From Botryllus schlosseri (lineage: Eukaryota), in the NCBI GenBank assembly GCA_051294905.1, contig CM119371.1, positions 6,760,001 to 6,824,000 of the forward strand: a stretch of 64,000 nt of DNA, in the 5' to 3' direction. The translations under genes were made by a program, and so were the position numbers. This document shows, piece by piece, positions 27,820-60,067 of the stretch (position 1 is the first letter of the stretch; each line of letters opens with the position of its first letter). Below the pieces are notes generated by a model. That model saw only the letters and a list, made by a program, of their open reading frames with translations, searched no databases and was not told where the DNA came from.

Positions 27820-29336
27820 CAGAATTGGACAACTAGATAATTCCAACTAGATAATTCCAGTTGTCTAATTCCCACTAAATTAGAGCGAAATGCCAGTAAT
27901 CTAATTCTAATCTAATTTGTGAAATGTTTCCATGCTCTAATTCTAATTCTAATCTAATTTGTGAAATGTCCGTCTGCTCTAATTCTAGTTTTAATCCAAT
28001 TAATGTTTTCCTGAAAATGCCTCTTTGTCCGAGGCATATTGCACTATTGCAGTGAGTTAACAAGAATATCCCTCTTGCGCAGGGAAATCCAGTGCCAAGC
28101 CGCCATCGCCTTACTTACACCGTGCAGTCTAAGATGATATTATGACGAATAATAGCCTGCTAGTGTAGCTTGTAGTCTGGGAACAACATTCTAGTTATTA
28201 AAACTTTATGTTAGTACATCGTCATTCTGACTAACATGGGCTATGCCCACGGTTACCATAAAAGAAGTAAATAAAAGAAGTAATATTTTATTAAAGTATA
28301 GTAAAAATCGAGCCAAGCTTGGTGTACAGAAGTTAACCATTCTCATGGTTATGGGAATGCACTGTTGTTGTTGTTTATTAAACAAAAATATGTGGCGCTT
28401 ATCGCCTCACGGCCTTTTTCACCACTCACTGTGATTTGATGTGAACTGAATTTGGCTGTATTCCTTTCCCATATACATTTTCATTCAATTTCCAAGTTTT
28501 TGCAAACTAAGTAGCTCTAATTATAATCTAATTTGAAAAAAGCTTAGTAGCTCTAATTCTAATCTAATTTGAAAAAAGCTTAGTAGCTCTAATTCTAATT
28601 CTAATCTAATTTGAAAAAAGCTTAGTAGCTCTAATTCTAATTCTAATCTAATTTGAAAAAAGCTTAGTAGCTCAAATTCTAATTATAATCTAATTTGAAA
28701 AAAGCTTAGTAGCTCTAATTCTAATTATAATCTAATTTGAAAAAAGCTTAGTAGCTCTCATTCTAATTCTAATCTAATTTGAAAAAAGCTGTGTAGCTCT
28801 AATTCTAATCTAATTTGAAAAAAGCTGTGTAGCTCTAATTCTAATTATAATCTAATTTGAAAAAAGCTTAGTAGCTCTAATTCTAATTCTAATCTAATCC
28901 GAAAAAAGCTGTGTAGCTCTAATTCTAATCTAATTTGAAAAAAGCTGTGTAGCTCTAATTCTAATTCTAACCTAATTTGAAAAAAGCTGGTGTAGCTCTA
29001 ATTCTAATTCTAATCTAATTTGAAAAAAGCTGTGTAGCTCTAATTCTAATTCTAATCTAATTTGAAAAAAGCTGTGTAGCTCTAATTCTAATCTAATTTG
29101 AAAAAAGCTGTGTATCTCTAATTCTAATCTAATTTGAAAAAAGCCGTGTAGCTCTAATTCTAATTCTAATCTAATTTGAAAAAAGCTGTGTAGCTCTAAT
29201 TCTAATTCTAATCTAATTTGGAAAAACTGAGTAGCTCTAATTCTAATTATAATCTAGTTTGAAAAAAACTGTGGAGCTATATTCTAATTCTAATCTAATT
29301 CAGAAAAGCTGAAAATTTTCTATTTGTCGAAGTCTG
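27820..29336. mobile_element. hAT-type element containing an expanded minisatellite
   Basis: Ends cagaattggacaa / ttgtcgaagtctg. 8-bp TSD gtcaccag at 27812-27819 and 29337-29344. Confidence 0.85.
28510..29310. repeat. 37/43-bp minisatellite, gtagctctaat(tctaat)1-2ctaatttgaaaaaagct(ta|gt), about 19 copies
   Basis: Directly visible tandem array. The unit switches from the gctta variant to the gctgt variant along the array. Confidence 0.95.
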
Positions 29337-32292: not shown

Positions 32293-33805
32293 CTATATCT
32301 TCACAAATACTGATTAGTAAATTGGAAAACATTGATCTACTTTTGGTTTCACTATAGTCCATTTGTCTTGTGATATATCGTACTTTTCAATTGCATCAGA
32401 AGTTTCTCCATCTGTTACTGCAAAAATCCACTTGTCAATGTGATACACAGAAATTCGACAATGATAATCATTCATAGAAGATAGTGAATGCCACTGAGCT
32501 GAAGTAACATCGTAACAGTCTACGTTGTCGACATACTTTATTCCTCTCCAGCCACCGATCACGAAAATCTTTTGATCAACTGCAACAACACCACTCACAC
32601 AAATCTCATTGGGTCGAGATCAACCCACTCTGATGAGGATGGAGTGAATCTGCAGAATGAAGAAACTAGGACACCACCTGGTCCTTCACCTCCGATACAA
32701 TAGATTGAATTATTCAATGATACGAGACCCACATCACATATCGCTGTAGGTTTGTCTTCTAGTTCAATCCATTTATTCAGGAGGGAAGTAAATATTTCCA
32801 CAACATGGTCACAAATCATATTTTTCATCTTTTCCCATTTTGAATTTTTGCTCTGAAAATTGAGTCGATGAACTGATTTATTCCTACATAAAACGCAGAT
32901 ATACGAGTCTAGAGAAATCGCTGAGAAATGTTTTAAATTCGTTAACTTCTCTACTTTCTCAGTTACTGGATTGAAGGATCGGATACAATCTGCCTCATCA
33001 TCAAAAAGAAGTATCAATTCATCATCACCAATTTCTTCATACTTTTTGTGCGATGTTTTTGGAGCTTCTAAAAGATGTACAATCTGAAGTCGTTTCTGAT
33101 AGTTTGGTTTGATTTCAAAAGACGCTCTAAAAATGCCAGAGCCACTTTATCAAACTTGACCACTTCGAGACACTTGTGCAAATGTTTCTGATTTTTCCCA
33201 TTTTTTTCAACCCAATTGAACAACAACGTTGTTTGTCTTCTTCACATAACTTTGAGTTTTCAGACTTCACATAACTGAGGATGTTAGTTTTTTCAGTATT
33301 TCCAAATTCACATTGGTTTGATATTGCCATGATATTTTCATGAAAAAATGCTCTACATCGCGTAGAGACGGCATCCAGTCCATACATATCGGCGACATTT
33401 CTTGTGGAAAAGTAATTCTCAACATCAAGTGATTCCTCCAAAACGTCAGATATTGCCTGTTTCACATTTTCCAACTACATCATGATTGCGACATGAAGAA
33501 GCTCAATCATCTTTTCTTCGGAAATTCCTAATTTGCCTGAATATATGAAATCGATGCAGCTTTTCACACATATAATCAACCTCTTTCAAAACAACTTTTC
33601 CCTCTCGACTCTCTTTTGTGTCGTGCTTTAACATCGCTTTGAAATAAGCACAACCAGCCGACAATACATTTCTATGAGTGTAATAGACATCATCTCCCAC
33701 TTGAATTATGAAATCACAATGATCGTTTTCTTGCTTCATTCGATGCAATTCTTCCATCATCTTCATTGAATGTTTTTCTACATTTGGACACACAATCTGC
33801 ACCAT
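32293..33805 (-). pseudogene. KLHL-like copy 3, multiply disrupted
   Basis: Four ORF fragments are colinear with the paralogs. Lesions include a ~2-bp deletion near 33571, CAG>TAG near 33476, further frameshifts, and an in-frame loss of ~25 codons near 32803 (CDH-V-VEIF vs CDHGPNPSSVSLSGSIFVVGRSYPKATSDVEIF). Confidence 0.9.
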
Positions 33806-34692
33806 GATTGTCAATCATGCACAGTAAGCTATATAGAATGATCCTATGATTGTTATGATATAGTCAAGCACTGTTGTTGAAGTAAAGATGATTAGTAGGG
33901 TAGATTTCGCACTGTCTACCGTTGCAGACTGCACATTGTCTGCTCATTGTGAATCATAAACGGTTACAAGCACACACACTCTCACATTACTACGGTAATA
34001 AACATTGGTCAGAAACGAAATTTATGAAGTAGTCAAATAGCATATGTATAGTAGGGTTGTTCAGAATTGACCGACTTTCAAAAAGTCTAGGTTTTCAGTC
34101 CGTTTCCCATGCCTTATACCTTAAAAACAAATTCTGGCAACTTTTTTTTGTAATTCATCCCCTGCATCCGTGTGCACATTGCCGTTTTCTCATGCAACTA
34201 AAAATTTCTTCGGAATTAGGGGATTCCCCCGTTGTCAGTGACTCGACAGGAATGGCGTGTGTTCTCATTGACGTGACGCGTATGGTTCTAGCGCTGAGCA
34301 CGGCTGTGAAACGGGGATCATTGATTAGTCAGGTGCCTTGCTGCTTTGTTGTTGATGGACTGTGTTTACGATAGAGGTGCAGGACTTATCAGGCGGCGTT
34401 TTGACTCATGCTATTAGCGAGTTTAGCGCGTGATTAGTGAACATAGTATTATAGCAGTATACAACTATTTAATGTAATAGACCTGATACTCTTTTCCTTT
34501 CTACTGGGATAGAAACAAAGCTTGCAAATGTCTATTCCAGTGACTGGGGAAAACCGCCAGTCGGTTGCTCTAAATTTTTTGTTATATCCCAAGATATCAA
34601 TATACTGGTATGAGTTTTTCCAATTTAGGAATAACTATCTTCGATAATCTATAACTGGATCTAATCTGGCTACTCCTGTGCAAGTTATGCAG

Positions 34693-35769: not shown

Positions 35770-38128
35770 ATGTCTGAAAAAAAAAGAAAATCGTCATCTA
35801 GTGCAGCAGTACCGAAGAAAACTAGAAGAACACGATCGCAGACACAGCATTTCTTAGTTGGGCCATCTGAGGAAGCCATTACGGGATCGAAGTTGCCCAG
35901 AATGCCCACTCTGTGGCAAGTATGCAATATGTGCTACACCTGAGAGAGCATTCATTTTAAAAAAATGAACCAGTCAAGTCACACATCCAGATCGCAGTAA
36001 ATGAAGTGATCGGTTTTTGGTTACTTGCTGGCATAAAGACTATCACAAAAGTCAATGCCACTAAAAGATTGGAAACAGTGTGGAAACAATGGCTGTCACT
36101 AAAGAAAACTGCAGGCCGGCAATATGTATCAAAAAAACAAAGCGACTTTGAAGCCAAACTGAGTAAGCTATGGGATATAGGAGCCCTTGACGCGATAGCG
36201 ACAATTGAAGCAAGTAGACTTCTTCCTGACGATCAAAAACGTGAAGACATAGCATTTTATCAAGATCAAAGGGGTCCGAGATTAGCAATGATCGGTGGCA
36301 AAGATAAAGTGTTGAAAGCGAAAATCATGCAACAAAAGAGACGGACCATGACTGCAAGAGAGTCTGCACCAGCATCAAGTAGCGAAGGTGAATTTACAGA
36401 GAGCTCATCTATATCTTCACAGGTAGCTGACACTTCTCACAGCACTGATTTTGAACTTGCACAGTCGACATTTGGTCATACCGCTAAATTTGTGACTATA
36501 AAAGCTCCTGTAAACCTATTCAGCGACGAAGACCTAGGCCAGGTTTTTGATCGCTTGAAAGTCAGTGATAATGCCGCTACCATGATAACTGCAGCACTGA
36601 TTAAAGCTTGCGATGGCAACCCTAATGACTTCCATCTTTCAAGATCTGGGACCTATCGACGACGCATTGCAAATCGTTTGAAAATTTCCGAATCTATCTT
36701 TGAAAAAATATCCACCAATCCACCAGAGCACATTGCATTGCACTGGGATGGAAAGCTCACTAAGAGTCGTCTAGGATATCAATTTGAGACCTTGGCAGCG
36801 CTCGCATCGTCTGCGTATTCCGGCGCATTTAAGAAAGGGAAACTTCTTGGCATTCAAACTCTGGAAAGTGCTACAGGAAAAGCACAGGCTGATGCATCAT
36901 TTGAACTGCTGGAACTTTGGAATTTAACAAAATCTGTTAGAGCTCTTGTGTTTGACACAACATCCTCAAACACTGGTAAAAACAAAGGTGCGGTTCCGTT
37001 ACTTGAAGAATTGATTAACAGGAAAGTTTTCTACAATGCCTGTCGCCATCATATTTATGAACTGGTCATTCGAGAGGTTTGGAAGTGTTTGTTTGGATCG
37101 ACAACCACAGGCCCTGAAAACACGGATTTTAATACCTTCAAGAAGAAGTGGAACCATATTGATAAATCAAGAAGCTATAAAACGCTGAAGTTTATTGAAG
37201 GCAGCTGGTTGGCGATGAAAGCTGATGAAGCAAAGCAAGAAATAATCCCACTGATGAAACCCAATGATGGAAAGCAGAAAGAAGTCTTGATAAGAGATAA
37301 CTACAGAGAATGTGCAACTGCAACAGGCACCTTGGCGATTTTGGATGACAAATATGTTGATCATCGTTTTCGCAAGCCTGGTGCTATTCATGCGCCAGAT
37401 GGATGAGTCAAATCCTGTACTGTCAAAAAATGTTCATGTGGAGTGAGAAAATGGACTATTCTGAAGAGTTCATTGAAAAGTTGGAATGAATCAATACATT
37501 CATTGCTTTGTTTTATGTTCCAGCTTGGTTGAAAACTGGTATTGCATGTGACGCACCTTGGAATGATCTCAAATTCCTTCATGACATGAAAAACTTTTCA
37601 TTATGCGATCTCACTGTTGCTGATGTGGCATACAAGAAATTGCGAAAACATCATTGGTATCTAACTGAGTAAATGGTGGTATTTACCATGTTCTCGGCTA
37701 ATCCAAAGATTCCTGACAAACTGAAGGAAGCGATGGCTGCTAAATTGCTGAAAATGCCAATCCCTGAAAAATTTCGCAGAGGTATGCCTCTCAGTCTGAT
37801 CTCTGACTCTGTCTCTGAGTCAATGAGTATGGTCGATTTGATTGGGCCAGAATCGTGGTTTCTATTTGATGCTATACATGTGGAACATGATTGGTTGAGT
37901 CTTCCAGTTTCGGAATGGCATACTGATCCGGATTTCGTGACTACTCAAGAATTTGTGAATACTGTTGAAGTAGTTAATGATGCAGCAGAGCGTATGGTAA
38001 AATTGAATACCGACTATGCTGCGTTCATAACGGATGACAAAAAACAGATAGCGAGCCTCCTACAAGCTGTGGAAGATCACCGGAACAGATATGCAGATTT
38101 CTCGAAAGCAACCATTTCATCCACCTGA
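35770..38128 (+). pseudogene. hATm-like transposase pseudogene
   Basis: Motifs LHWDGK, FDTTSSNTG, ACRHHIYEL, PGAIH/ARWM and VVNDAAERMVKL. Frameshifts near 35905-35930 and 37390. Premature stops near 37488 and 37670. Confidence 0.88.
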
Positions 38129-42043: not shown

Positions 42044-43675
42044 CTATCTCTTCACAAATACGGATCTGTAAATCTCAAAGCATTGATCCACTTTAGGTGT
42101 CACTTTTATCCATTTGTCTTGCGATGTATCATACTTTTCAATTGCATCACAGGTTTCTCCATCTGTTACTGCAAAAATCCACTTGTCGATGTGATAAGCA
42201 GAAACTAGAATGTGACGAGCATTCATAGAAGATAACGAAGTCCATTGAGCAGAAGTAGCATCGTAACATGCCACGTTTTCGACTTGGTATCTTCCAGCAC
42301 TCCCCCCACCGATCACAAATATCTTCTGATCAACTGCAACGACACCACTCCCCCATACAGGATATCTCATTGGTTCGAGATCAACCCACTCTGATGATGC
42401 TGGAGTGAATCTGCAGAATGATGAAACTATGACAGCACCTGGTGCCATACCTCCGATACAATAGATGGAATCATTCAATGATACGAGACTTGTTAAACGA
42501 ATCGCTGAAGGTTTGTCTTTCAGTTGAAACCACTGATTAGCAGGTGAAGTAAATATTTCCACGTCACTTGTTGCTTTAGGATAACTTCTTCCAACAACGA
42601 ATATTGATCCTGACAAAGAAACTGAGCTAGGATTCGGTCCATGGTCACAAATCATATCGTTCATCTTTTCCCATTTTGAATTTTTGCTCTGAAAATTTTG
42701 TCGATGAACTGATTTATTCCCACATAAAATATAGATATAAGAGTCCAGAGAAATCGCCGAGAAATGTTTCAAATCCTCAAACATCTCATCATGCAACTTC
42801 TCTACTTTCTCAGATACAGGATTGAAGGATCGGATACAATCTGCGTCATCATCAAAAAGAATGATCAATTCATCATCACCAATTTCTTCTTTCATTTTGT
42901 GCGATGCTCTAGGAGCTTCTAAAAGATGTCCATTGATCAACTTGTACAATCCGAAGTCGTTTTTGATAATTTGGTTTGATTTCAAAATACGTTCTAAAAA
43001 TGCCGGAGAGACTTCATCAAACTTGATTGCTTCAAAACACTCGCGCAGATGTTCCTGATTTTTGCAATTTTTCTCGGCCCAATTGAACAATAAAGTTAAT
43101 TTTTCTTCTTCACATAACTTTGATTCTTCCAGCATCACAAATTTGAGGAGGTTAGTTTTTTCTATTGTTCCAAATCCAGGTTGGTTTGATATTTCTATAA
43201 TATTTTCATGAAAAAATGCTCTACATCGCGCAGAGACAGCATCCAGTCCATACATATCGGCGACATTTCTGGTAGAGAAGTAATTCTCTACATTAACTGA
43301 TTCCTGCAAAATGTCGGATACGGCCTGTTTCACGTCATCCAACTGCATCATGATTGCGACATGAACAAGATCATTCATCTTTTCATCAGGAATCTCAAAT
43401 CTGCCCGAATATATGAAATCGATGCAGTTTTTTACACACTGAGAATCGACCTCTTTAAAAACAACTTTTCCTTCACGACTCTCTTTTGTGTCGTGTTTCA
43501 ACATAGCTTTGAAATAAGCACAACCAGCCGACAATACATTTCTGTGAGTGTAATAGACATCATCTCCTACTTGAATTATGAAATCACAATGATCGTTTTC
43601 TTGCTTCATTCGATGTAATTCTTCCATCATCTTCACTGAATGTTTTTCTACATTTCGACACACAATCTGCACCAT
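42044..43675 (-). CDS. Intronless BTB-BACK-Kelch (KLHL-like) protein, copy 4, intact, 543 aa
   Basis: Uninterrupted ORF with the same domain layout as copy 2. Confidence 0.93.
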   Translation of the reverse strand: MVQIVCRNVEKHSVKMMEELHRMKQENDHCDFIIQVGDDVYYTHRNVLSAGCAYFKAMLKHDTKESREGKVVFKEVDSQCVKNCIDFIYSGRFEIPDEKMNDLVHVAIMMQLDDVKQAVSDILQESVNVENYFSTRNVADMYGLDAVSARCRAFFHENIIEISNQPGFGTIEKTNLLKFVMLEESKLCEEEKLTLLFNWAEKNCKNQEHLRECFEAIKFDEVSPAFLERILKSNQIIKNDFGLYKLINGHLLEAPRASHKMKEEIGDDELIILFDDDADCIRSFNPVSEKVEKLHDEMFEDLKHFSAISLDSYIYILCGNKSVHRQNFQSKNSKWEKMNDMICDHGPNPSSVSLSGSIFVVGRSYPKATSDVEIFTSPANQWFQLKDKPSAIRLTSLVSLNDSIYCIGGMAPGAVIVSSFCRFTPASSEWVDLEPMRYPVWGSGVVAVDQKIFVIGGGSAGRYQVENVACYDATSAQWTSLSSMNARHILVSAYHIDKWIFAVTDGETCDAIEKYDTSQDKWIKVTPKVDQCFEIYRSVFVKR

Positions 43676-44462
43676 GATTGTCGATCAACTATAATTATCC
43701 TATGGTTATTATATTATAGTCAAGCACTCTTATTGAATTAAAGAGGATCAGTTTACTAGAGTAATGCCTGTTGAAAGAATCATAATACGTATATCCACGT
43801 CATGAGTATGAATGGAAGGACATTCAACTACACACAAGGTGATCACTGAACGGTGCTAAATCAGAGGCATCTCTGCCATAACGCAGTTGTGAAAACTTCA
43901 TTCTTGCTTTACTTTTTATTCGTTGTATTGACACGAAACCAAAGACTTATTTCGGTCGATTACCACCACCTTGCGAATGATCGAGTTGATCATCCGTATG
44001 CTAAATTGTATTTTGGAACATCATAAAATAATTTTATACTATGGTATATTCCAGGGGCGGCCGCATCTGTTTCATGCTCCATCCCAATATCACAAAGATT
44101 GGCTTTAAAAGAACAGCAACATGAAAGATCACGCTGATTACACTGAAGTGGTCCTGGCGGAATTCTAGTGGAATATTCGCTCTAACGTGAAACACCAAGA
44201 ATGATCATGTAAATCACTATTTCTGGGATTAACCCCGAGCGTATCGTGCAATCAGAAAATATCGACTACGGTTGAATTTTTTCTTTATTCGGGTCTAATT
44301 TGGAAAAAAATCAGGATTTCGAGACTTAATTTAATGCAACATCGTCATTAGCTCATTGCTATCTAAAATAAATCGAGGAATAATAGTCGACATGATTCGT
44401 AACATATTCTTCGCTATAGCGAAATTATCGAATGCAACCAGAAGCGTCGACTATAATATATC

Positions 44463-47400
44463 ATACTTTCAACATTGTATTTGAGAGTCGAGCGGACTTG
44501 CTAATGTTACAACCAATATACCACGGCAAAGTGCTTAAATAGTTCTACAATATAAAAACAATTTCAGAGTATAGCGGGTCTTAGTTTAATCAAAATAAGA
44601 GCGCAAAGTAGGTCCGTAACGTCGCATTTGAGGCATACGAATATACCAATTGACACGAAAATACGATACTTTCAGTGTTATATTTGGGAGTCGAGCGGAC
44701 TTGTTAATGTTACAACTAATATATCACGGCAAAGTGCTTAATTAGTTCTACAATATAAAAGTAATTTCAGAGTATAGCAGGTCTTAGTTTATTCAAAATA
44801 AGAGCGCAAAGTAGGTCCGTAGCGTCGCATTTCAGGCATACGAATATACCAATTGACACGAAAATACAATACTTTCAGTGTTATATTTTGGAGTCGAGCG
44901 GACTTGTTAATGTTACAACTAATATATCACGGCAAAGTGCTTAAATAGTTCTACAATATAAAAGTAATTTCAGAGTATAGCGGGTCTTAGTTTATTCAAA
45001 ATAAGAGGGCAAAGTAGGTCCGTAACGTCGCATTTCAGGCATACGAATATACCAATTGACACGAAAATACAATACTTTCAGTGTTATATTTTGGAGTCGA
45101 GCGGACTTGTTAATGTTACAACTAATACATCACGGCAAAGTGCTTAAATAGTTCTACAATATAAAAGTAATTTCAGAGTATAGCGGGTCTTAGTTTATTC
45201 AAAATAAGAGGGCAAAGTAGGTCCGTAACGTCGCATTTCAGGCATACGAATATACCAATTGACACGAAAATACGATACTTTCAGTGTTATATTTGGGAGT
45301 CGAGCGGACTTGTTAATGTTACAACTAATACATCACGGCAAAGTGCTTAATTAGTTCTACAATATAAAAGTAATTTCACAGTATAGCGGGTCTTAGTTTA
45401 TTCAAAATAAGAGCGCAAAGTAGGTCCGTAGCGTCGCATTTCAGGCATACGAATATACCAATTGACACGAAAATACGATACTTTCAGTGTTATATTTGGG
45501 AGTCGAGCGGACTTGTTAATGTTACAACTAATACATCACGGCAAAGTGCTTAATTAGTTCTACAATATAAAAGTAATTTCAGAGTATAGCGGGTCTTAGT
45601 TTATTCAAAATAAGAGCGCAAAGTAGGTCCGTAGCGTCGCATTTCAGGCATACGAATATACCAATTGACACGAAAATACGATACTTTCAGTGTTATATTT
45701 GGGAGTCGAGCGGACTTGTTAATGTTACAACTAATACATCACGGCAAAGTGCTTAATTAGTTCTACAATATAAAAGTAATTTCAGAGTATAGCGGGTCTT
45801 AGTTTATTCAAAATAAGAGCGCAAAGTAGGTCCGTAGCGTCGCATTTCAGGCATACGAATATACCAATTGACACGAAAATACGATACTTTCAGTGTTATA
45901 TTTGGGAGTCGAGCGGACTTGTTAATGTTACAACTAATACATCACGGCCAAGTGCTTAATTAGTTCTACAATATAAAAGTAATTTCAGAGTATAGCGGGT
46001 CTTAGTTTATTCAAAATAAGAGCGCAAGGTAGGTCCGTAGCGTCGCATTTCAGGCATACGAATATACCAATTGACACGAAAATACGATACTTTCAGTGTT
46101 ATATTTGGGAGTCGAGCGGACTTGTTAATGTTACAACTAATACATCACGGCAAAGTGCTTAATTAGTTCTACAATATAAAAGTAATTTCACAGTATAGCG
46201 GGTCTTAGTTTATTCGAAATAAGAGCGCAAAGTAGGTCCGTAGCGTCGCATTTCAGGCATACGAATATACCAATTGACACGAAAATACGATACTTTCAGT
46301 GTTATATTTGGGAGTCGAGCGGACTTGTTAATGTTACAACTAATACATCACGGCAAAGTGCTTAATTAGTTCTACAATATAAAAGTAATTTCAGAGTATA
46401 GCGGGTCTTAGTTTATTCAAAATAAGAGCGCAAAGTAGGTCCGTAGCGTCGCATTTCAGGCATACGAATATACCAATCGACACGAAAATACGATACTTTC
46501 AGTGTTATATTTGGGAGTCGAGCGGACTTGTTAATGTTACAACTAATACATCACGGCAAAGTGCTTAATTAGTTCTACAATATAAAAGTAATTTCAGAGT
46601 ATAGCGGGTCTTAGTTTATTCAAAATAAGAGCGCAAAGTAGGTCCGTAGCGTCGCATTTCAGGCATACGAATATACCAATTGACACGAAAATACGATACT
46701 TTCAGTGTTATATTTGGGAGTCGAGCGGACTTGTTAATGTTACAACTAATACATCACGGCCAAGTGCTTAATTAGTTCTACAATATAAAAGTAATTTCAG
46801 AGTATAGCGGGTCTTAGTTTATTCAAAATAAGAGCGCAAAGTAGGTCCGTAGCGTCGCATTTCAGGCATACGAATATACCAATTGACACGAAAATACGAT
46901 ACTTTCAGTGTTATATTTGGGAGTCGAGCGGACTTGTTAATGTTACAACTAATACATCACGGCAAAGTGCTTAATTAGTTCTACAATATAAAAGTAATTT
47001 CACAGTATAGCGGGTCTTAGTTTATTCAAAATAAGAGCGCAAAGTAGGTCCGTGGCGTCGCATTTCAGGCATACGAATATACCAATTGACACGAAAATAC
47101 GATACTTTCAGTGTTATATTTTGGAGTCGAGCGGACTTGTTAATGTTACAACTAATACATCACGGCAAAGTGCTTAAATAGTTCTACAATATAAAAGTAA
47201 TTTCAGAGTATAGCGGGTCTTAGTTTATTCAAAATAAGAGCGCAAAGTAGGTCCGTAGCGTCGCATTTCAGGCATACGAATATACCAATTGACACGAAAA
47301 TACGATACTTTCAGTGTTATATTTGGGAGTCGAGCGGACTTGTTAATGTTACAACTAATACATCACGGCAGAGTGCTTAATTAGTTCTACAATATAAAAG

Positions 47401-48819
47401 TAATTTCACAGTATAGCGGGTCTTAGTTTATTCAAAATAAGAGCGCAAAGTAGGTCCGTGGCGTCGCATTTCAGGCATACGAATATACCAATTGACACGA
47501 AAATACGATACTTTCAGTGTTATATTTTGGAGTCGAGCGGACTTGTTAATGTTACAACTAATACATCACGGCAAAGTGCTTAAATAGTTCTACAATATAA
47601 AAGTAATTTCAGAGTATAGCGGGTCTTAGTTTATTCAAAATAAGAGCGCAAAGTAGGTCCGTAGCGTCGCATTTCAGGCATACGAATATACCAATTGACA
47701 CGAAAATACGATACTTTCAGTGTTATATTTGGGAGTCGAGCGGACTTGTTAATGTTACAACTAATACATCACGGCAAAGTGCTTAATTAGTTCTACAATA
47801 TAAAAGTAATTTCACAGTATAGCGGGTCTTAGTTTATTCAAAATAAGAGCGCAAAGTAGGTCCGTAGCGTCGCATTTCAGGCATACGAATATACCAATTG
47901 ACACGAAAATACGATACTTTCAGTGTTATATTTTGGAGTCGAGCGGACTTGTTAATGTTACAACTAATACATCACGGCAAAGTGCTTAAATAGTTCTACA
48001 ATATAAAAGTAATTTCAGAGTATAGCGGGTCTTAGTTTATTCAAAATAAGAGCGCAAAGTAGGTCCGTAGCGTCGCATTTCAGGCATACGAATATACCAA
48101 TTGACACGAAAATACGATACTTTCAGTGTTATATTTTGGAGTCGAGCGGACTTGTTAATGTTACAACTAATACATCACGGCAAAGTGCTTAAATAGTTCT
48201 ACAATATAAAAGTAATTTCAGAGTATAGCGGGTCTTAGTTTATTCAAAATAAGAGCGCAAAGTAGGTCCGTAGCGTCGCATTTCAGGCATACGAATATAC
48301 CAATTGACACGAAAATACGATACTTTCAGTGTTATATTTGGGAGTCGAGCGGACTTGTTAATGTTACAACTAATACATCACGGCAAAGTGCTTAATTAGT
48401 TCTACAATATAAAAGTAATTTCACAGTATAGCGGGTCTTAGTTTATTCAAAATAAGAGCGCAAAGTAGGTCCGTAGCGTCGCATTTCAGGCATACGAATA
48501 TACCAATTGACACGAAAATACGATACTTTCAGTGTTATATTTGGGAGTCGAGCGGACTTGTTAATGTTACAACTAATACATCACGGCAAAGTGCTTAAAT
48601 AGTTCTACAATATAAAAGTAATTTCAGAGTATAGCGGGTCTTAGTTTATTCAAAATAAGAGGGCAAAGTAGGTCCGTGACGTCGCATTTCAGGCATACGA
48701 ATATACCAATTGATGCGAAAATACCATATATCCAGCGTTGAGTCGAGCGGACTTGCTAATATTACAACTCATATACCACGGCAAAGTGATTGAATAGTTC
48801 TACAATATAAAAGTAATTT
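44463..48819. repeat. 203-bp tandem satellite, about 21.5 copies
   Basis: Anchor gagtcgagcggacttg at 44485, 44688, 44891, 45094 ... 48545 (exact 203-bp period), with a final partial copy at 48740. Edge copies are more diverged. Confidence 0.97.
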
Positions 48820-49179
48820 GCAATTAGCCAAATTTTTTAAAAATACCTCGCGGACCGGCAGAAACGTCATCGCGGACTGGCACCGGTCCGCGGACCGGCG
48901 GTTGAGAACCACGGCTCTAACTCAAAATGTATGACAAATTCCCGGCCAGGCATAGGCTATGCCTCAATTCCAAATGTACGAAAAATCCCAATGTTTGCCA
49001 AGCATTTCACGCTGAATTCAAGAGCGTTCTGCAAATGTTTTTCAGACAACGAACACATTATCGGAAAAGGCCTTCAAAGTCCATATGCCTCAATTCCAAT
49101 GTTGGTCAAGTTTCACGCTGAATTCAAGAGCGTTCCGCGCCTGCATTTCGGACAATGAACACCACGTCTGAATGGACTC

Positions 49180-50115
49180 CAGACATGGGGTGATTACTTC
49201 ACGAATGTAATCGATTGCGATTACGATTACTTTTGAATTCCGCGATTACGATTACGATTACAGCAAAATCAGGAAGTAGTCGACTACGATTACGATTACA
49301 TTTCAAAAGTAATCACGATTACTCACGATTACATTTGTTTTACTTCTTAGAACTAATTTCAGAAGAGATTGGAAGACAATGTAAGGCTTGCGATGAAAAG
49401 GTCTAATGAGATAACAACTTTCTTTATTAATCATACGTCATTTGCTTGTTACGTCGTAATGCACCCATTGCCCAACTCTATGCAGGCCTATTCGTCGCAA
49501 CCAACGATTTGCATTCTTACCAGGTCCGTAACTGCCACACCCCAAACTTCCCAATAGGACCGGGAGCGAGCTCGAAGGGGACTCAAAAGTATTTCGTAAA
49601 TCATCATAAATTATTATATAGTATTTTCAAGAGAGTTAATTAACAGGTGCTTTACGTGCTTGCGTGCGTGTTGTGTTGTGTGTGTATGTGGGGGGGGGGG
49701 GGCGTGCCTCACCAGCCATGAACCTCACCGCACGTCACTGGTCTGGAGTGTATTGATAGCCTGATATTCAGCATGGCTTACACTCTTATTACAATCACAC
49801 AACGATGTTCATCGAATATATATTTACTACGTGTGGATACTTCTTACGCAAGGACGAGCAAAGCTAATTCTTCTGACGTATAATTAGCAGTGGCGTTTGA
49901 AAATCAACCGTTTGCGCTATCCATAACTTGGTATAATATCTCTTCCTTGTTCACGAATGTCATATTCATTGTACAAATAAAAAGTAATCGTTCTTTTACA
50001 AAGAAATCGATTAGATATGGGAAGTAGTCGATTACGATTACTCACGATTACATTTGTTTTACTTCTTAGAACTAATTTCAGAAGAGATTGGAAGACAATG
50101 TAAGGCTTGCGATGA
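49180..50115. mobile_element. Rearranged, inverted relative of element 12834-15009
   Basis: Begins cagacatggggtgattacttc and matches the reverse complement of ~14600-15009, then of ~12950-13140. The second TIR is absent. Confidence 0.8.
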
Positions 50116-50903
50116 GTAGTTTTTAAATTCGAATGTAAACTTTGCGCCCAGTGCATGCTGCGTGTTTATTGATGACTCGTGTTTCAAGTGTTTATGTTTG
50201 TCGACTATCCCTTTGATTTGATATGTAAGTGGTTTCCCGCTGATAGCATCATTTTCTTCGCTCGCTGTGTATACACGATCGGTGGAGAATTCTGGTCATC
50301 CACCAGCAGTATTTCCCTAATTATTCGCACTTCTGCATAATTTTGAGATTTTTCCATAATTGGCCTCGAATCTGATAAAATCTTACCCCTTTTGGCCAAA
50401 TTCTTTCCGACTGCCCACTATGCAGCTCATATTCGCTGAATAAAATCGCTGTACAGTGAGCGCGATTGCAAAGTAATAGTCGCATTTTGTATGTTAGCGT
50501 GAGATTGCACATCTAGCACAGTATCAGTCGCATGAGTTGAATCTATTGAAACTTTTATAGGGTCAGTGATTTGTGTTTTTTTCAAGTTGTATAATTATGC
50601 CGTAATTGTGTAAATACTTTCTAAAAAACATGTAGAATGTATCTCCTGTTCTCGAGAAAATCCTGTGACCATCATAAAGTTACATTTTCAAGTTGAAAAT
50701 CGCCAGTGTGACGTCATGTCCAGAATAAAGTCGCGTGCAACCCTTGCCCCATCCCTCGATATTGTCACGAGTCGCCACTGTATGGTTTATAATTTTTAGA
50801 TCATAATTTACGACGATCAAGAAGTCGTGGAAGGCATAGTATTTCAGGTAGTCCGATTTTACTTGTCAGTTGGCAGATAGCGCAGCAATCCGAAAGGTGT
50901 AAT

Positions 50904-51493
50904 TATAGAAATTAAACATGGAACGGCAACGACCGATTTTGCAGCTTCGATCCGCTTCGCCGAGGCAGGAGTGGAGAATTGTTTTGCGTAAGCGACTGCA
51001 GGATTTCTGGCAACCCAAAAGCTATCTTCCCTGGCGCAGAAATTACTGAACCTGGTCTTGATCGAAAGCTACTGTTGCACCGATTCCGAAAATATAAATT
51101 AAAATATTGATTGGCACTGATCCACCTAGAATATGTCCTCCAAGTCTGAAATATCAGCATTGTTCAGAACAATCCGGTAACCGCAACACAATGGCCACAA
51201 AAATGACCCGTTGCGACTCTCCGATTGTTCGAACAATGCCGATATTTCAGACTTGGAGAACGGATTCTAGGTGGATCAGTGCCTGATCATTATTTTAATT
51301 TATATTTTCGGAATCGGTGCAACAGTAGCTTTCGATCAAAACCAGATTAAATAATTTCTGCGCTCGGGAAGATAGCTTTTGGATTGCCAGAAATCCCACA
51401 GTCGCTTTCGCAAAACAATTCTCCACTCCTGCCTCGGCGAAGCGGATCGAAGCTGCAAAATCGGTCGTTGCCGTTTCATGTTTAATTTCTATA
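50904..51493. mobile_element. 590-bp palindromic (foldback) MITE, copy A
   Basis: ~270-bp arms starting tatagaaattaaacatg. 7-bp TSD gtgtaat at 50897-50903 and 51494-51500. Confidence 0.92.
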
Positions 51494-51901
51494 GTGTAAT
51501 CGTATGTGTTATGGGAAGACTATATATAAAGGTCGCTCAGGAAAATACGGTGGCAAGCCGCCGTCGCCTTATTTACACCGTACATCCAAGCTCACAGCAC
51601 ACAGAGAGTCACTAAATATTCAAAAATGAAAAACTGGATATTTCGAGCAACCTTTTGTAACAAACCAACTAATATGTTTGAGATTGTCAAGGTGCATGTT
51701 CGTTTAGTGTTGATTTTATTATGATGCCATCGCCATGCATAGAGTGGCCCGCAGTTGAAATGCAATAAATTTCAACCAAAGATGTTATAATGAAGTGAAA
51801 ATTGTAATATATCAAACCCTCCCAGTAGAGGTTTCGTTGTTTTGACATATTTCAGGTGACTCTATGAGTATTATGCCCTATAATACTAATATATATTCAA
51901 C

Positions 51902-53718
51902 ATGAAGCAGAAGAAGCCAAAGTTTGACATAAAAGCTGTAGCATATTCTTTGGCGATTTCACTTGATGCTATTCCTTCTCCACAATCCCCTCTAAAGCGT
52001 GCCGTCGTCGCACAAGCATGGAAAATACGTCGTACAGTCGCATCTCCCAGAAAAATAACGACGGTTTACGATTTGTGGAATAATAGCTCTGACTTCAGGG
52101 CCATGGTATTGAAATATTTCCAGGAGCACCATCAGCTAAATACCGACGTACATGAATCTCGAGAGGAGTCTCTCCAAGTACATGCAGCGGAGAGTGGTCT
52201 AGAACTTTCGGAAGCGACACGAAATACCCGCGTAGAGGAGAACTCCACGATTGACCAATCAAATCTTGAGCAATGTAAAGACACAGAAGCCGTATATTGT
52301 TACTGCAAACGACCGTATCGAGGTGAATTCATGGTACAGTGTGAAGATTGCAAATGTTGGTTTCATCCTACATGCGCCTTTCGACCCGACAGTAAAGAAT
52401 CGAAATTTGATCATAATCAATGGCGTACTGTATCCTTGCACTGCAGGGTCGACCATAACACAAGCACACAGCGCCCGTTTTATACTCACGCACCTCAGAT
52501 TAACAATCGTTATGTCGATAAAGAACCAACGCCGCCCACGCCTCTCCTCGATGAGTTTACGGGACAAGATGGAATGTTAAATGCTTGGGATGCATGTGAT
52601 CATACCAAATCGCTTCCAGAGTCCCAGATTACGTCGATTTCTAAACCTGCCGGGCACAGCGAAATTAATGAAACATGGGTGAGTGATTCCGCAATCGAAT
52701 CTATTGGAGGAATGACAGCGAAGATATCGGACAAGATCAAAGAACCTGATGAGGTGAACTTACGACGGTTAACTTCAATTACTGCAGAAGAATGGAAAAG
52801 AGCCATTCAAAATCGAGGCCAACATCATTTTGCCAACAAATCTCAGTACGCAGAGACACTTATACGGGCGCTTCGGCAAGTATATGATTCATGTGTGCCG
52901 ATGATAAAAAGTAATTATTTACGTGCTCAAGACAAAGTGACAGAGATTACGACGGAATCTGATCGATATTACGAAGGCAATGTTATACTGTACTGCGGTC
53001 ATAAAACATGTTGCGAAAGGTCCGTGGACATATGAGCATGCGACATTACAGCATGCGAGACTTCGGCATGCGACAATTTGGCATGCGACACATGAGCATG
53101 TGGGTTAAATTACGGGTTAGGGGTAGGTTAGGGTTTGATTTTGGTTGGGTTAGGGTTAGGGTTTAGGTTAGGTTAGGCTAGGTTAGGTTAGGTTAGGCTA
53201 TGTTTAGGGTTAGGGTAAGTTTTTGGGTTATACAGTCACATGCTGAAGTGACGCATGCTGATGTGTTCCATGCTAAACTGTCGTTTTCCATTGTGTCGCA
53301 TGCTCATATGTCGGGCAACCGTTGCGAATGTACAGTCACTATCCATGCTCAATTGTACAGTATGGTAAATTCGGCGCAAATCGACTTTCATATAACCGGA
53401 GACAGGCATCATCGACATGAATGCACTAAATCAAGAAGAGTCAAAGGCGAACAGCGGCTTCATCTGAAAGAGGAGCTTGATTACAAAACCCCGACTCAAG
53501 TGCATCGACATTTATTTGATACATTGTCTGAAAATGAACGATTTTTTGGTTCACATACATTCGCACCTTCGACTGACGTTCTGAAAGACATCAAAAGAGA
53601 TGGTTGTCCAGTGGTAAAATATTCCAAAAACTGGCTATTCTGCATGGAGAAATTGGTGAAAATATTCACGAATGAGAAGAAAACTAATTTGACTCTCTGC
53701 TGTGAGCTTGACCCGTAA
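51902..53718 (+). pseudogene. PHD-finger protein with a MULE/NOF-like transposase N-terminal region, interrupted by a MITE and apparently 3'-truncated
   Basis: PHD-like YCYCKRPYRGEFMVQCEDCKCWFHPTC. Removing the MITE plus one TSD (311 bp) fuses ORFs 51902 and 53200 in frame (GHKTCCECTVTIH..GDRHHRH..RRVKGEQR..PSTDVLKDIK), giving 501 aa. The MULE/NOF assignment is from recalled motif similarity only. Confidence 0.7.
53019..53320. mobile_element. 302-bp MULE-type MITE with a central (ggtta/gggtta)n tract
   Basis: GG..CC termini and IR gacatatgagcatgcgaca / tgtcgcatgctcatatgtc. 9-bp TSD gttgcgaaa / gttgcgaat at 53010-53018 and 53321-53329. Confidence 0.88.
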
Positions 53719-55476
53719 TCACACTACATCAATATCGAAATACACTTACATGTAGACAGCGAATGATGCTTATTCAAACGAGAATTAATATTGTTGTCTG
53801 ATTTTATTAATCTAGTAGGCATATGGGGTCAGGGTCAATATTGACTTCATGTATATATTGTATCATAAAAACCAAATCTGTGCAATTGGGGAGTTGGCTA
53901 CTGCTGTATAGGTTACCTTGTTAATGAGGTAATATCGGTAGCAAGTATAGAAACCCGTTATACACTCTGCACTATATCAACGTAACAGTACTAGACGCCG
54001 AATGCATTGTCCGGTCTGGCCTAGACCGTTAAGGCGCCGCAAGCTTATATCCCCTTGCAAGCCCTCGTCGAAATTGTTGGCAAAGCGACGGAAGATATTG
54101 ATTTTATGGGATTATTATATCATCTGATTGCCGCAGTTGATACATTTGGCGACGTTCAAAACGTCCGCATTGTGGCATTATGTGGCCCGAGTCGTCGCTA
54201 GGCATCGTGCACACTGCACATTAATATAGGATATCACTTCACTGAAATGTAGGGTTGGAATTGGCAATATGACGTCACGTGACGTCATGAGGTTCACGTT
54301 CGCGTTCACACAGAACCTTTCAAAAAGGTTCGCGTTCACACGAACCTGAACCTTTCAGAGGTTCACACCATCCCTACTATATAGTCTACATTACATTACG
54401 TATAGCCTACGTACATCGCATGCATATACTCCAGATTCAAACTAAAGCCAATATAAAAAGGTATGCCGTAACAAATAAAGTCGCAACTCACTCTTTCTAT
54501 AGTTCAAACCATGTTTTTTTTAATTTCCATTGTTACATTCAGAATTATACGCCGCGTGCTTTATATTTCGCGTCGTGCGAGAATTTCATGAAAACAGAAG
54601 TGGAGGCTGAAGACCGACATTTTGCAGAGATTTGTGCCTCGACATCTTCCTGTCTATTCATTGTATCGCATTTTTTGTGGTGTATTGAACTGATAAAATT
54701 GCAAATAAACCAATGATGATAAATATTGTAGCCTACTCAAGTATAAACGCATTCTTTTAGTTTGTGGGAGCAAGTTGCCGTGGTTAAGGCATATAAGTTG
54801 AGTCGGCATTATGAGAAAAACTGCTAGTGAAATACAGACACTCGGGTGAGGTTTAGAGAGAGTGCGAATTTCGGACGACTTAGCAAACCAGGCTTATTTT
54901 ACCAAACTGCACACACGTCGGAATGCAGCGACCACGACCAAGAATAATGACACTGAATATATAGTATTTTTTGTAAAATAACCTCACTTTATTACCTAAT
55001 ATTCAACGTTTGATTCAACAAAGTATTTTCTGCATCACATTTGACCCCTCGTGAGAAATAATTTCACACCCCAGCTCCGACTGGAAGTAATTTTGTGCTA
55101 AAGAACTATCCAATACCGATTCCTGGGTGGTTTCATTGTGATATTTGAAGACGTGTCAGACTTCTAAGTAAAATATTGAAAGTAAGCTACTATTCCTATG
55201 GACGCGTAAGCCTAAAATAATAAGTATTTAGACCAAAAATATTGACGAGCTTTTTGTAGGCAGAGACGAGACGACAGATTTCGCATACTCGGAAAGGGTC
55301 GTTTACTCTTTCATTTATCAAAATACACCAGCCAACGCTGTGTCAACAAAACGAGTTCGCGTATCATCTAAAAATAGTACATTGAACGCTCTCGTAGTAT
55401 TCGACATTCCATGCTGTTGACGTCATATTTTGTGATACGATTGTTGATATACGATGCTCATGTGAATTCTCTACTA

Positions 55477-55665
55477 GTTGATGACGATTATTACCCCTGA
55501 CGAGTTTCGGCCGAAAATATTCGGGTACATTTCAATATGGCTATGCTAATCAATTGTACATTGATGTTCTGTACCTCCAAGGAGCTGTACAATCGAATAA
55601 TATATTCATATTGAAATATACCCGAATATTTCAGCTGACACTGGTCAGGGGTAATCGTCAACAAC
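55477..55665. repeat. Imperfect hairpin / small MITE
   Basis: Arms ttacccctga..gaaaatattcgggtacatttcaatatg vs catattgaaatatacccgaatatttc..tcaggggtaa. A partial related copy lies at ~55944-56000. Confidence 0.75.
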
Positions 55666-56500
55666 TTTTCCAGATTAGAATAGAATTAGATTACTGGCAT
55701 TTCGCTCTAATTTAATGAAATCAGACAACTATAATTATCTAGTTGTCCAAGTCTGGTTCACACTTTCATTTGTCGATCCTGGAGTCGACTTCTATCAACA
55801 TCCGCCAATCGGATTTGTCCCTACAGAAGGTGTTCGTGCATAATCTAAGAATAGTAGCCCCGGTCATTCGGAATTGCAGGCCGGTGACGTCATATTTGTT
55901 GATGCGTGTGTTGGTATACAATGTCCTTTCCAATCCTCTGCCAGTTGTTAACGATTACCATTCGGGTATATTTCGATATAAATATGCTCTTCAATTGTAC
56001 ACAAATATCGGTCTCATATTTTGAATAAGCCAGGACTATGTAGACTCTGAAAATCATTTTGTAATGAAGAATAATCCAATACCGTTTGTGTGATAATTTT
56101 ATGATTTATTAAAATAGCGAATAACGAGGAAATAACGCTGCATCAAATCTGTCTTCAAATTCAGTTTTCCAATAAATTAGTCGTGATTAGTCAAAAATTC
56201 CTCCCGAGAAGTCGACATTTCCGACCACTTGATACGCCAGGGGTTAATATTGACTATTCGTTCACCATAATGTTTCACGTGATCATTCGCCATGTTTCAC
56301 CTCAGTGCAAACATTCCGCCGAAATTCCGCCAGGACCACTTCAGTCTGATTACTGCTATCATCGTAGCATGATTTTCATATAAACGGAAATGAAAAATGA
56401 TTCACCATGAACATGAAAATACAAAATGTTATAAATCTATAGAATAGTAGGACTATTATAAGTAGTTTCTCGACTAAGATATAGCTTAATAAACTAGCAC

Positions 56501-58389
56501 CAGGGCCGTAACAGCACTTCGTCAGGCCCCCCCCAAAACTTTGGTTTTGGGCCCCCTTTGGTTTTGGGCCCCCCATAGGGTTATAGACCGAACGTCTGGG
56601 GGGCTTCGCCCCCCAGACCCCCCTCCGCCGATACGCTGTTTACCGCTATTCATCATAGTCATTGGGAGTATATTTAGTGAATCAGCTTTTGTCGCCTAAG
56701 CGCGCCATGCGCGCAAAATTTCTAGAATTCATGATTTCATCGGTCAGTATGATCGGGAATTGCATACATTGTTATCAATTTTTATCCTCTCTTTGGTCAC
56801 GTAATCAGATTTGCCGGTAGAGCTGAGTGAGGTGTGTTTGTAAAGGTAGGGCCACTCAATAATAATTGAACATCTTCGGGCGTATATATACCCGTTGGCA
56901 GGAACAAAACAGCACCCCCATAGGGTGATAAAACGACCCCCCCCCATCACGTTGTTCGCGTTTGTCACGAAATTAACCGTACTTTATTGTGAGCCAGCGC
57001 GAAGCGCGAAAATTTTCGATAATTTATGATAAAATCGGTCAATCAGATCGACGACTGCATATATAATATGCTATCAACTTATTGTCCTCTCTACTCACGT
57101 AATCAGATTTGTCGGTAGTGCTGAGTGAGGTGTGTTTGAAAAGGTAGGACCACTCAATAATAATTAAACAACTTCGGGCGTATACCCGTTGGCAGGAACA
57201 AAACAGCACCTCGTCAGGCCCCCAAAAACGTGGGTCTTGGGCTCCCATAGGGTGATAAAACGACCCCCCCCCATCACGTTGTTCGCGTTTGTCACGAAAT
57301 TACCCGTACTGTATTGTGAGCCAGCGCCAAGCGCGAAAATTTTCGACAATTTATGATAAAATCGGTCAATCAGATCGGCGACTGCATATATAATATGCTA
57401 TCAATTCATTGTCCTCTCTACTCACGTAATCAGATTTGCCGGTAGTGCTGAGTGAGGTGTGTTTGAAAAGGTAGGACCACTCAATAATAATTAAACATCT
57501 TCGGGCGTATACCCGTTGGCAGGAACGATACAGCACCTCGTCAGGCCCCCCAAAACGTGGGTCTTTGGCTCCCATAGGGTGATAAAACAACAACCCCGCC
57601 ATCACGTTGTTCGCGTTTGTCACGAAACTAGCCGTACTGTATTGTGAGCCAGCGCGAAGCGCGAAAATTTTCGATAATTTATGATAAAATCGGTCAATCA
57701 GATCGGCGACTGCATATATAATATGCTATCAATTTATTGTCCTCTCTATACTCACGTAATTAAATTTACCGGTAGAGCTGAGTGAAGTGTCTTGAAAACG
57801 GGAGGGCCCGTAAATAATGATTAAACATCTTCGGGCGGGCGGAACCGTTGATATGACTTCGTTACATGATGTTATTTCGTGATTTCCAGTCTGCTATATC
57901 AAAAAATATAGAACCGCCCAAACGTAGGCTTCTAAACTAAGAGAAGCACACGATTTCAAATTGGTATTTCTTCACTGGCATAAAAGGAACAATCGGCGCC
58001 TGTCATTTAGGCGCCTATGGACAATTAAACCTATATGTATTTTATATATATAGCGAAGTCTTTGATCTGCATAAGGGCATAGACCTTTTCGGTCAAGCTT
58101 TTCTCGCTGCCAATCGTTCTGGCACACTTCTTGGAGTCGCATGTTATATGGCCTAAAACTGGATTGTATATGTCTTGGTGGGTCGTGGCGCGGTAATGGC
58201 CCAATACCCAATAATAAAGATAACTGGCTACGTGATTTCGCGCGCAGCGCGGAAAAATTTTGAAAATATTGCATAAATTTTCAAAAAATACTCTATGATT
58301 TATGCTAATTCACGAAATAATTTTGGGCCCCCCATCGAGCTCGGGCCCCCCCCAATTGGGGGGTTTGGGGTGCGGCAGTTACGGTGCTG
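56501..58389. mobile_element. hAT-type element with internal 328-bp tandem repeats (~3.5 copies)
   Basis: Ends cagggccgtaac / gttacggtgctg. 8-bp TSD actagcac at 56493-56500 and 58390-58397. Anchor gcgaaaattttcga at 57005/6, 57333 and 57661. Confidence 0.88.
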
Positions 58390-58745
58390 ACTAGCACTGT
58401 CGTTTTAAAGATGATGATTAACAAGTAATGCCTGTTGAAAAATTCACAATATCATAATGAACGTCACGAGTATGAATTGAAGGAAATTCAACTACACGCA
58501 AGGTGAACACTGAACAGTGCGAAGTCAGAGACATCCCTGCCACAATGTAGTTATGAAAACTTCTTCCGTCGATTTGCCTTACGTTTTATCCGTTGTATTG
58601 ACACGAAACCGAAGAGTTATAGCGGTCGATTACCACTACCTCGCGAATGATCGAGTTGATTATCCGTAATCTAAATTGTATTTTGGAACATCGGTAAATA
58701 GTTCTATACTGTGGTATAGTCCAGGGGCGACCGCATGTGTTTTAT

Positions 58746-59336
58746 TATAGAAATTAAACATGGAACGGCAACGACCGATTTTGCAGCTTCGTTCCGCTTC
58801 GCCGAGGCTGGAGTGGAGAATTGTTTTGCGTAAGCGACTGTAGGATTACTGGCAATCCAAAAGCTATCTTCCCGAGCGCAGAAATTATTGAATCTGGTCT
58901 TGATCGAAAGCTACTGTTGCACCGATTCCGAAAATATAAATTAAAATAATGATCAGGCACTGATCCACCTAGAATCCGTCCTCCAAGTCTGAAATACCGG
59001 CATTGTTCGAACAATCGGAGAGTCGCAATGGCTCATTGTTATGGCCATTGTGTTGCGGTTACCCGATTGTTCTGAACAATGCTGATATTTCAGACTTAGA
59101 GGACAGATTCTAGGTGGATCAGTGCCTGATCATTATTTTAATTTATATTTTCGGAATCGGTGCAACAGTAGCTTTCGATCAAGACCAGATTCAGTAATTT
59201 CTGCGCTCGGGAAGATAGCTTTTGGATTGCCAGAAATCCTACAGTCGCTTACGCAAAACAATTCTCCACTCCAGCCTCGGCGATGCGGAACGAAGCTGCA
59301 AAATCGGTCGTTGCCGTTCCATGTTTAATTTCTATA
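58746..59336. mobile_element. 591-bp palindromic MITE, copy B (opposite orientation)
   Basis: Same arms, with the loop reverse-complemented relative to copy A. TSD gttttat / gtttcat. The empty paralogous site has a single gtttcat at 44069-44075. Confidence 0.92.
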
Positions 59337-60067
59337 GTTTCATGCTCAAACCGAATATCACAAAGATTGGCTTTAAAAGAGCAGCAACACGAAAGACCAC
59401 GCTGATTTCACTCCGTGTTTGGAAACGAAATCAGCGAAGCATGTGGCTTGTCAGTGTCATCTAACGGATAATTAGTTTTTACATTTGCACTGTAGCCGTT
59501 ACCAATGATATATATATATATATATAATATTTCTCATTGCAGTTACTGACGGGGTAAACCTTGTGCTATAAGTAACAATTATTCAGTTTATTAATAGTTT
59601 CATCATTTTAAAACACCACAAGACTGCGCCTAGGCGATGTAGAGAAGAGGCATGCACGCTGAATGAAAGTTAAGCAGAGAATATAAAAGGCATGCTAGCC
59701 TTACAAATGCGTACAATCTTTGAAATTATATGCATTTACGATGATGCAGGAGCTATTTAGCGCAGTTTTTACGACTCATAAACGTGTGTCAGATTTATCA
59801 CAAAACTATTTTCTACTTTTCAAAATCCAAAGTGTAGAAAGTATAGGTAGTTGTAGGCCGAAACAACAGTTCAAGTAGTAGTGGAAGTAAAATTTCAAAA
59901 TGTCACCATTAGAGTATGTAGCGCAAATAAGCAAAACGTACTCAAGTACTGCGAATAGGGACGATCTTCAGCAATATATTCAGTTACGAAAAGTGGCTAT
60001 TTAACGGCCTTCTTATGACAATTTCACTCATAAAAATGATCCCAATTTTCCAAAAACTACTTTCTAC

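Follow-up and report, generated by a model that had tools for sequence, protein, structure and literature searches.

The window analysed here is a stretch of 64,000 nucleotides from Botryllus schlosseri (NCBI GenBank assembly GCA_051294905.1, contig CM119371.1, positions 6,760,001 to 6,824,000 of the forward strand). Beside a BTB-Kelch gene, it carries an element of 12,204 bp at 44142-56345. In our view, it is very probably a copy, decayed and non-autonomous, of a Rehavkus-like DNA transposon of the foldback type in the MULE superfamily. It has long terminal inverted repeats (TIRs), a tandem satellite in one arm, the remains of a putative transposase gene between the arms, and a target-site duplication (TSD) at its tips. 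Positions throughout are those of the window. The parts on which the identification of the element depends are as follows.

44134-44141 (+): left TSD, 8 bp; also overlaps an 11-bp near match (10/11) to a paralogous promoter region at 59402
44142-44374 (+): left arm, outer part; a 23-bp perfect tip, then about 75% identity to the right arm
44463-48820 (+): satellite, 21.5 x 203 bp, 97% matches; the edge units are the most diverged
51902-53017 (+): transposase gene, 5' piece, 372 amino acids (aa) without stops; N-terminal helical region, PHD finger and start of a zinc/DNA-binding region
53018-53320 (no strand): nested miniature inverted-repeat transposable element (MITE) of about 300 bp, with GGTTA-type repeats and an 8-bp duplicated target; breaks the frame inside a cysteine cluster
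53323-53688 (+): transposase gene, second piece, 122 aa without stops; ends 38 residues before the first catalytic Asp
53689-53691 (no strand): break point; coding DNA for the DDE core, Ulp1 and USP is missing from here, and contigs of two other sequencing runs diverge at 53690
55960-56094 (-): single decayed satellite unit in the right arm, inverted, 250-385 bp from the tip
56103-56345 (-): right arm, outer part, with its tip at 56323-56345; the alignment of a contig from run X14 ends exactly at 56345
56346-56353 (+): right TSD, 8 bp

Element ends and target-site duplication

A first-pass annotation, made by a model from the letters of this DNA, had described a TIR with 23 perfect and about 240 imperfect base pairs and the same octamer on both flanks. 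Both descriptions held up. The tips at 44142-44164 and 56323-56345 form a perfect inverted repeat of exactly 23 bp, which does not extend outward. The outer arms align over 233 and 243 nt, with 167 of 222 aligned pairs identical, and their alignment score of 148 compares with a maximum of 53 in 100 shuffles. Two short motifs, GCGGAA and GTGAAAC, lie at equal offsets (16 and 46) in both arms. Directly outside each tip is the octamer CTGATTAC, which is present on the + strand of the window only at these two places and on the - strand four times. When lengths from 2 to 13 were tried, a direct repeat was found at the tips for length 8 only. Other registers for the ends (CACTG ends, G...C ends and a 9-bp TSD) were inspected by eye and with the same TSD-length test, and none of them fitted. 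The agreement of TIR ends and TSD is far above chance.

The satellite in the arms

The satellite reported just inside the left TIR was also recovered. When 21 of its units were cut out and compared, the inner units were 2.5 bases apart on average, and the two edge units were 10 and 19 bases from the consensus. Diverged edges around a homogeneous interior are the usual pattern of an array that has expanded in place. The right arm contains one decayed unit in inverted orientation (score 66, where 200 shuffles gave at most 52; nhmmer E-value 6.8e-5 for 56010-56072), so the satellite is an inner segment of the arm that was amplified on the left side only. We rejected an origin by duplication of the outer arm, since the unit scored 21 against the outer arm, below the shuffle mean. 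The motifs GCGGAA and GTGAAAC, common to both tips, are absent from the 203-bp unit and, therefore, the array may be neutral growth. For Muta1, a MULE of Aedes aegypti, more subterminal repeats are reported to give higher excision (PMC5499845).

The transposase gene remnant

A PHD-finger gene had been predicted inside the element, and the finger, at about 52295-52423, matches Pfam PF00628 with an E-value of 1.3e-5, which passes the cut-off. Its Tyr, Met and Trp, which we take to be the methyl-lysine cage residues of such fingers, are kept, and its last zinc ligands are atypical. Both pieces of the open reading frame (ORF) are collinear with related proteins of about 2,000 aa. In one of these, P0001 (2,074 aa), residues 493-826 correspond to the 5' piece and residues 828-948 to the second piece; the break in the reading frame between the two is due to the MITE inserted there. 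The N-terminal residues of the ORF, about 180 in number, match another relative, P0061 (E 7e-8), which argues that the PHD finger and the region preceding it are native to the protein family. The PHD gene had at first been described as cargo, with an independent nested insertion as a possible alternative. These alignments instead place it at the N-terminus of a transposase of the element's own type: it is the first ~495 residues (PHD finger and zinc/DNA-binding region) of a ~2,000-residue PHD-DDE-Ulp1-USP transposase.

Everything from the DDE core onward is absent from this copy, which is catalytically dead and non-autonomous. With 63 related proteins as tblastn queries against the element, no match with E < 0.06 was found outside 51932-53685. 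To look at other copies, the stretch 51500-56500 only was compared with contigs from three DNA-type runs and with the reads from one RNA run. Among the matches listed, record 4 of run X14 aligns over 166 of its 623 letters, up to 53690, and record 21 of run X5 has 55 letters unaligned. Because contigs from these other runs leave the window sequence at 53690, other copies or alleles probably keep the part that was lost here. Searches of longer proteins seeded with words from each ORF piece yielded 0 of 42 and 0 of 2038 candidates, and an Atlas search with a 130-aa piece fell below the recognition threshold and was uninformative. RNA depth was 0 over most of the ORF, with 3 reads near 52003, in a weak data set of one bulk run of which about 6/100 was read.

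Upstream of the ORF, 51520-51590 has a TATA-like motif and, after it, a stretch of 56 bp that is found again at 28077-28133. Since its depth is low like that of the ORF, this is a candidate promoter region.

Intact relatives of the encoded protein

A HMMER scan with the second ORF piece gave 18 matches, 16 of which are relatives; P0009 and P0016 were dropped as unrelated on the basis of sequence and domain content. The sole named relative is an uncharacterised protein of the tunicate Styela clava (P0019). Its gene model has an extra N-terminal GDSL/SGNH-like domain before the PHD finger, which may be a fused neighbouring element.

Five full-length relatives were aligned. Invariant in all five are D986, D1060, C1106-x-x-H1109 and E1327 (P0001 numbering), the Ulp1-type residues H1625, Q1681 and C1687, and the USP-type residues N1755 and C1760; the catalytic labels are our own reading of the alignment. 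A structural model of P0022 had as its top transposase match ISCth4 (Foldseek E 9.7e-6; Z 10.1, root-mean-square deviation [rmsd] 6.2, 232 aligned), presumably an IS256-family enzyme, and a weaker match to Hermes (E 4e-4). The same model matched SENP/Ulp1 proteases with a best Z of 15.4 (rmsd 3.4, 174 aligned). The family profile matches USP structures (best E 1.5e-17) as well as the PHD fingers of DIDO1, PPS and SPP1. In the Atlas, the core adjoins MULE clusters (scores 0.92 and 0.89), and all 10 neighbours with an assigned family belong to the MULE clan. IS256 is described as a prokaryotic relative of MULEs (PMC5225508). Ulp1, PHD and C19 ubiquitin hydrolase domains are described as separate transposase add-ons, for which a role in chromatin or deconjugation is proposed as an idea (PMC2836005). 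A protein-family scan of metagenome contigs gave 10 loci, eight of which match the PHD finger only.

Nested repeats and depth

The nested MITEs noticed at first reading are present, for example at 50904-51493 and 53018-53320. The remaining parts of the element's interior are listed here.

48830-50115 (no strand): pile of nested repeats; 49180-49606 and 49790-50041 have further copies in the window, and there is an 85-bp direct duplication (49312/50031)
50904-51493 (no strand): palindromic MITE of 590 bp, nested, whose ends carry a 7-bp direct repeat; a second copy (95%) lies at 58746-59336
51587-51816 (+): piece of a repeat of very high depth, lying upstream of the ORF; the first 25 bp of this piece are found again, inverted, at 53690-53710
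53691-54376 (no strand): nested high-depth repeats
54376-55300 (no strand): 3' backbone of low depth, with contigs 54376-54668 and 54905-55300; a high-depth repeat near 54640-54720 interrupts it, and coding homology was not found in the backbone
55270-55900 (no strand): nested high-depth repeats, including the palindrome 55476-55666

Low-depth stretches, among the matches listed, are 51837-53000, 53324-53690, 54905-55300 and 55860-56345. Contig depth, which is not equal to copy number, was 2.4-4.7 (X14) and 56-162 (X5) over the ORF and 5.5-7.2 (X14) and 237-256 (X5) over the 3' backbone, again among the matches listed. Both are low and of the same order, which supports a single element; the MITE-like stretches are hundreds to thousands of times deeper. 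Run X5 contains at least two overlapping ORF variants (6 and 41 differences). The X14 contig that stops at 56345 has 2 letters left over, and this suggests that there may be other flanks. The pattern of depth and variants fits a low-copy family. It is possible that the ORF segment between 51587-51611 and 53690-53710 has been inverted, in which case the satellite would originally have been at the 3' end of the element.

Flanking sequence and neighbouring features

The left flank of the element is the upstream region of a BTB-Kelch gene, and paralogues of this region lie at 5022-5185 and 59337-59502. The right flank consists of 147 bp, followed by a hAT-like MITE (56501-58388) and then by a second, gene-less copy of the Kelch upstream region. 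Beyond the insertion point, both paralogues run on into sequence that the right flank lacks, and a deletion therefore appears to end at one of the junctions. The 11-mer formed by the octamer and the first three TIR bases has a single near match in the window (10/11), at the paralogous position. Either the element inserted elsewhere and a later leftward deletion was repaired at the microhomology of this 11-mer, or it inserted here and a rightward deletion then started at the edge of the TSD. Both histories leave the octamer as a true TSD. A weak match of the right flank to the BTB-Kelch start region (score 50 versus a background of 43) was not relied on.

The - strand has a tandem series of four BTB-BACK-Kelch paralogues, whose DNA is about 85% alike, at 3078-4702, 22810-24453, 32317-33814 and 42047-43684. 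Two of them, at 22.8 and 42.0 kb, each form a single open frame; the paralogue at 3-4.7 kb is divided between two frames and that at 32-33.8 kb is broken into four pieces. A fifth, gene-less upstream remnant is at 58405-59502. The hAT-like element at 56501-58388 is non-autonomous and has CAG...CTG ends and a duplicated target of 8 bp; inside it, a 327-bp unit is repeated in tandem (2.8 copies). Farther from the element, two long frames of 481 and 151 aa at 35961-38125 (+) have no Pfam match; from their motif, they look like a broken DDE transposase of another kind. A 129-aa frame at 11281-11667 (-), also without a Pfam match, has a CxxC...H zinc-finger-like start and is possibly a transposase fragment. 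A 42-bp tandem array of about 20 units is located at 28516-29311, with related pieces dispersed at 25263, 29900 and 39250.

Classification

FB-NOF elements of Drosophila melanogaster have foldback arms with repeats around a MULE-like gene, and an undescribed FB/NOF-like family was the interpretation tentatively given to the present element at first. Part of this stands, as there is one foldback-type, MULE-kind element with a MULE-related gene. The nearest described group, however, is Rehavkus, compared by description only, and no NOF sequence was among the 18 + 5 matches of the protein searches.

An 8-bp TSD was at first considered atypical for MULEs. This is contradicted by the 8-11 bp given for the superfamily (PMC6446971) and by the 8 or 9 bp of Muta1 (PMC5225508). 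The element has the TSD of a MULE, at one site, and long TIRs of 233 and 243 nt with an inner, satellite-related segment. A DDE core in which CxxH lies after the second D and before the E is found in the relatives only, and the intact DDE transposase of an autonomous MULE copy is absent. The relatives have no Trp shortly before the catalytic Glu (W401 in Muta1), and an invariant Tyr stands 22 residues before this Glu.

Rehavkus is a little-studied Repbase group placed within or as sister to MULE, with six families tabulated (PMC6446971), and it is counted within MULE by others (PMC13359780; bioRxiv 10.1101/2021.09.26.461848). It is described as 5-18 kb long, with TIRs of 26-412 bp, a single ORF with a PHD finger, and a TSD of 9 bp in five of the six tabulated families, the sixth being without a figure (PMC6446971). 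Its tandem repeats lie before the 3' TIR (PMC6446971) or, in Tribolium, at both termini, where they expand into satellites (bioRxiv 10.1101/2024.12.02.626372; PMC10218199). As far as these descriptions go, the present element resembles Rehavkus in its large size, its long TIRs, the PHD finger in its transposase protein and perhaps the tandem repeats at its ends. It differs in its TSD (8 bp at one site versus 9 bp) and in its array, which lies 5' of the gene in one arm only, with a single remnant at the 3' arm. The described hosts of Rehavkus are insects and a leech, whereas the sole named relative found here is from Styela clava, and the intact relatives add Ulp1 and USP domains that the Rehavkus descriptions consulted do not give. 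We use the name Rehavkus-like, without membership in Rehavkus, because the TSD at this single site is 8 bp instead of 9 bp and no tree comparison underlies the name.

Two other systems are similar in part. Muta1 is described with an 8-9-bp TSD, long TIRs with subterminal repeats, the order D-D-H-E, and non-autonomous derivatives whose two ends differ in repeat number (PMC5225508; PMC5499845). In contrast to Muta1, the spacing in the relatives is 49 residues from the second D to H (24 in Muta1) and 218 from H to E (112), the Trp that Muta1 has about 18 residues before the Glu is lacking, the repeat unit is 203 bp instead of 12 bp, and PHD and protease domains are added. Tetris of Drosophila virilis, the structural parallel, is described as having foldback arms with an outer domain followed by tandem repeats of about 220 bp, an 8-10-bp TSD and a role as a satellite source (PMC4079207). 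It has no coding remnant, whereas here a transposase fragment survives and the satellite unit is not similar to the outer arm.

Several observations weigh against a Rehavkus-like MULE. Beyond the 23-bp tip, arm identity is only about 75%. No further copy having both ends and a TSD of its own was seen in the run contigs at 51500-56500 or in the metagenome contigs, and the TIR pattern had 0 matches in the latter. Of the metagenome loci, L001 and L002 are decayed pieces of the core and have no inverted repeats, and no relative was seen between TIRs. Because the 3' backbone has about twice the depth of the ORF, the ORF may be missing from some copies. Joined together, the flanks do not restore the sequence of either in-window paralogue (2/2), and the expected continuation is absent from the right flank. 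Among the relatives scanned, none reached Pfam MULE (PF10551) or Peptidase_C48, and only 3 of the 5 full-length relatives reached Pfam UCH; in the nearest Atlas clusters, PF10551 is found in 42-97% of members. The model of P0022, which is that of a relative and not of the window's own protein, has a mean predicted local distance difference test score (pLDDT) of 47.8.

Some of these points, and others, could be accommodated by different origins. It is unlikely that the locus is a composite, in which a non-coding foldback element made of the arms and satellite later received an unrelated fragment of a MULE transposase by insertion or rearrangement. The ORF is flanked by inverted fragments of one very high-depth repeat (51587-51611 and 53690-53710), no contig among the matches listed joins it to either arm, and the 3' backbone is deeper than the ORF, all of which would suit a composite. 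However, low-depth backbone continues beyond each of the two bracketing repeats (51510-51585; from 54376 on), a scan of candidate repeat edges only found no TIR/TSD pair belonging to the gene itself, and the type of gene is exactly the one expected for satellite-bearing long-TIR elements. We regard it as highly improbable that the two ends are two insertions of one family fused by recombination or deletion, with an octamer that is no true TSD. An exact 8-mer at both tips is expected by chance about once in 65,000. Such a fusion could account for a left flank from the upstream region of one BTB-Kelch paralogue and a right flank that reaches a second copy, with the expected continuation missing, but a single insertion followed by a flanking deletion suffices, and the near match of the 11-mer at the paralogous position fits microhomology repair or insertion there.

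The class of the element can also be questioned, as KDZ/Zisupton and hAT elements also make 8-bp duplications. The TSD and the weaker fold match to Hermes would fit either of these, and Ulp1 and PHD add-ons are described in several superfamilies (PMC2836005). An assignment to them in place of MULE is nevertheless extremely improbable: the best transposase fold match is ISCth4, the family-assigned Atlas neighbours are all MULE-clan, and the order D...D...CxxH...E is that of MULEs.

Proposed mechanism and significance

For a Rehavkus-like MULE, an intact transposase would be expected from its family to bind the arms and cut both ends by its D-D-E site. The flanking DNA may form a hairpin at the cut, by analogy to Muta1, for which cut-and-paste movement with hairpins on flanking DNA is reported (PMC5499845), and insertion would follow with an 8-bp stagger (PMC5225508). 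To judge from domain type, the PHD finger is probably a reader of a histone H3 tail, and removal of SUMO and ubiquitin is probably the task of the two proteases. The present copy would have inserted beside a BTB-Kelch gene, suffered an internal deletion at 53690 and several MITE insertions, amplified one inner arm unit to 21.5 copies via unequal exchange or slippage, and undergone a flanking deletion ending at one junction. It could be mobile only with transposase supplied in trans.

A broader proposal, which we hold tentatively and with some doubt, is that the element may represent a Rehavkus-like MULE branch of marine invertebrates (tunicate-type) that uses 8-bp targets and is as yet undescribed. 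With its PHD finger, the single protein of ~2,000 residues would recognise a histone mark, and it would strip both SUMO and ubiquitin, thereby escaping silencing or steering repair, and its arms would seed one-sided satellites. By title or start of abstract, no paper on Ulp1, PHD and ubiquitin hydrolase domains in one MULE protein was found; Repbase Reports and most subscription journals were outside the search and, thus, this absence is weak evidence of novelty. Literature on foldback elements in ascidians was likewise not found in a search that did not extend to Repbase. The route from arm to satellite is already described for Tetris and Rehavkus (PMC4079207; PMC10218199).

The family matters more than the copy, as Ulp1, PHD and ubiquitin hydrolase domains come together in one predicted MULE protein. 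The dead copy is a clean snapshot of a satellite growing from one arm of a foldback transposon. If the broader proposal is true, the intact relatives would make it possible to test directly why ubiquitin-like proteases are found in transposases.

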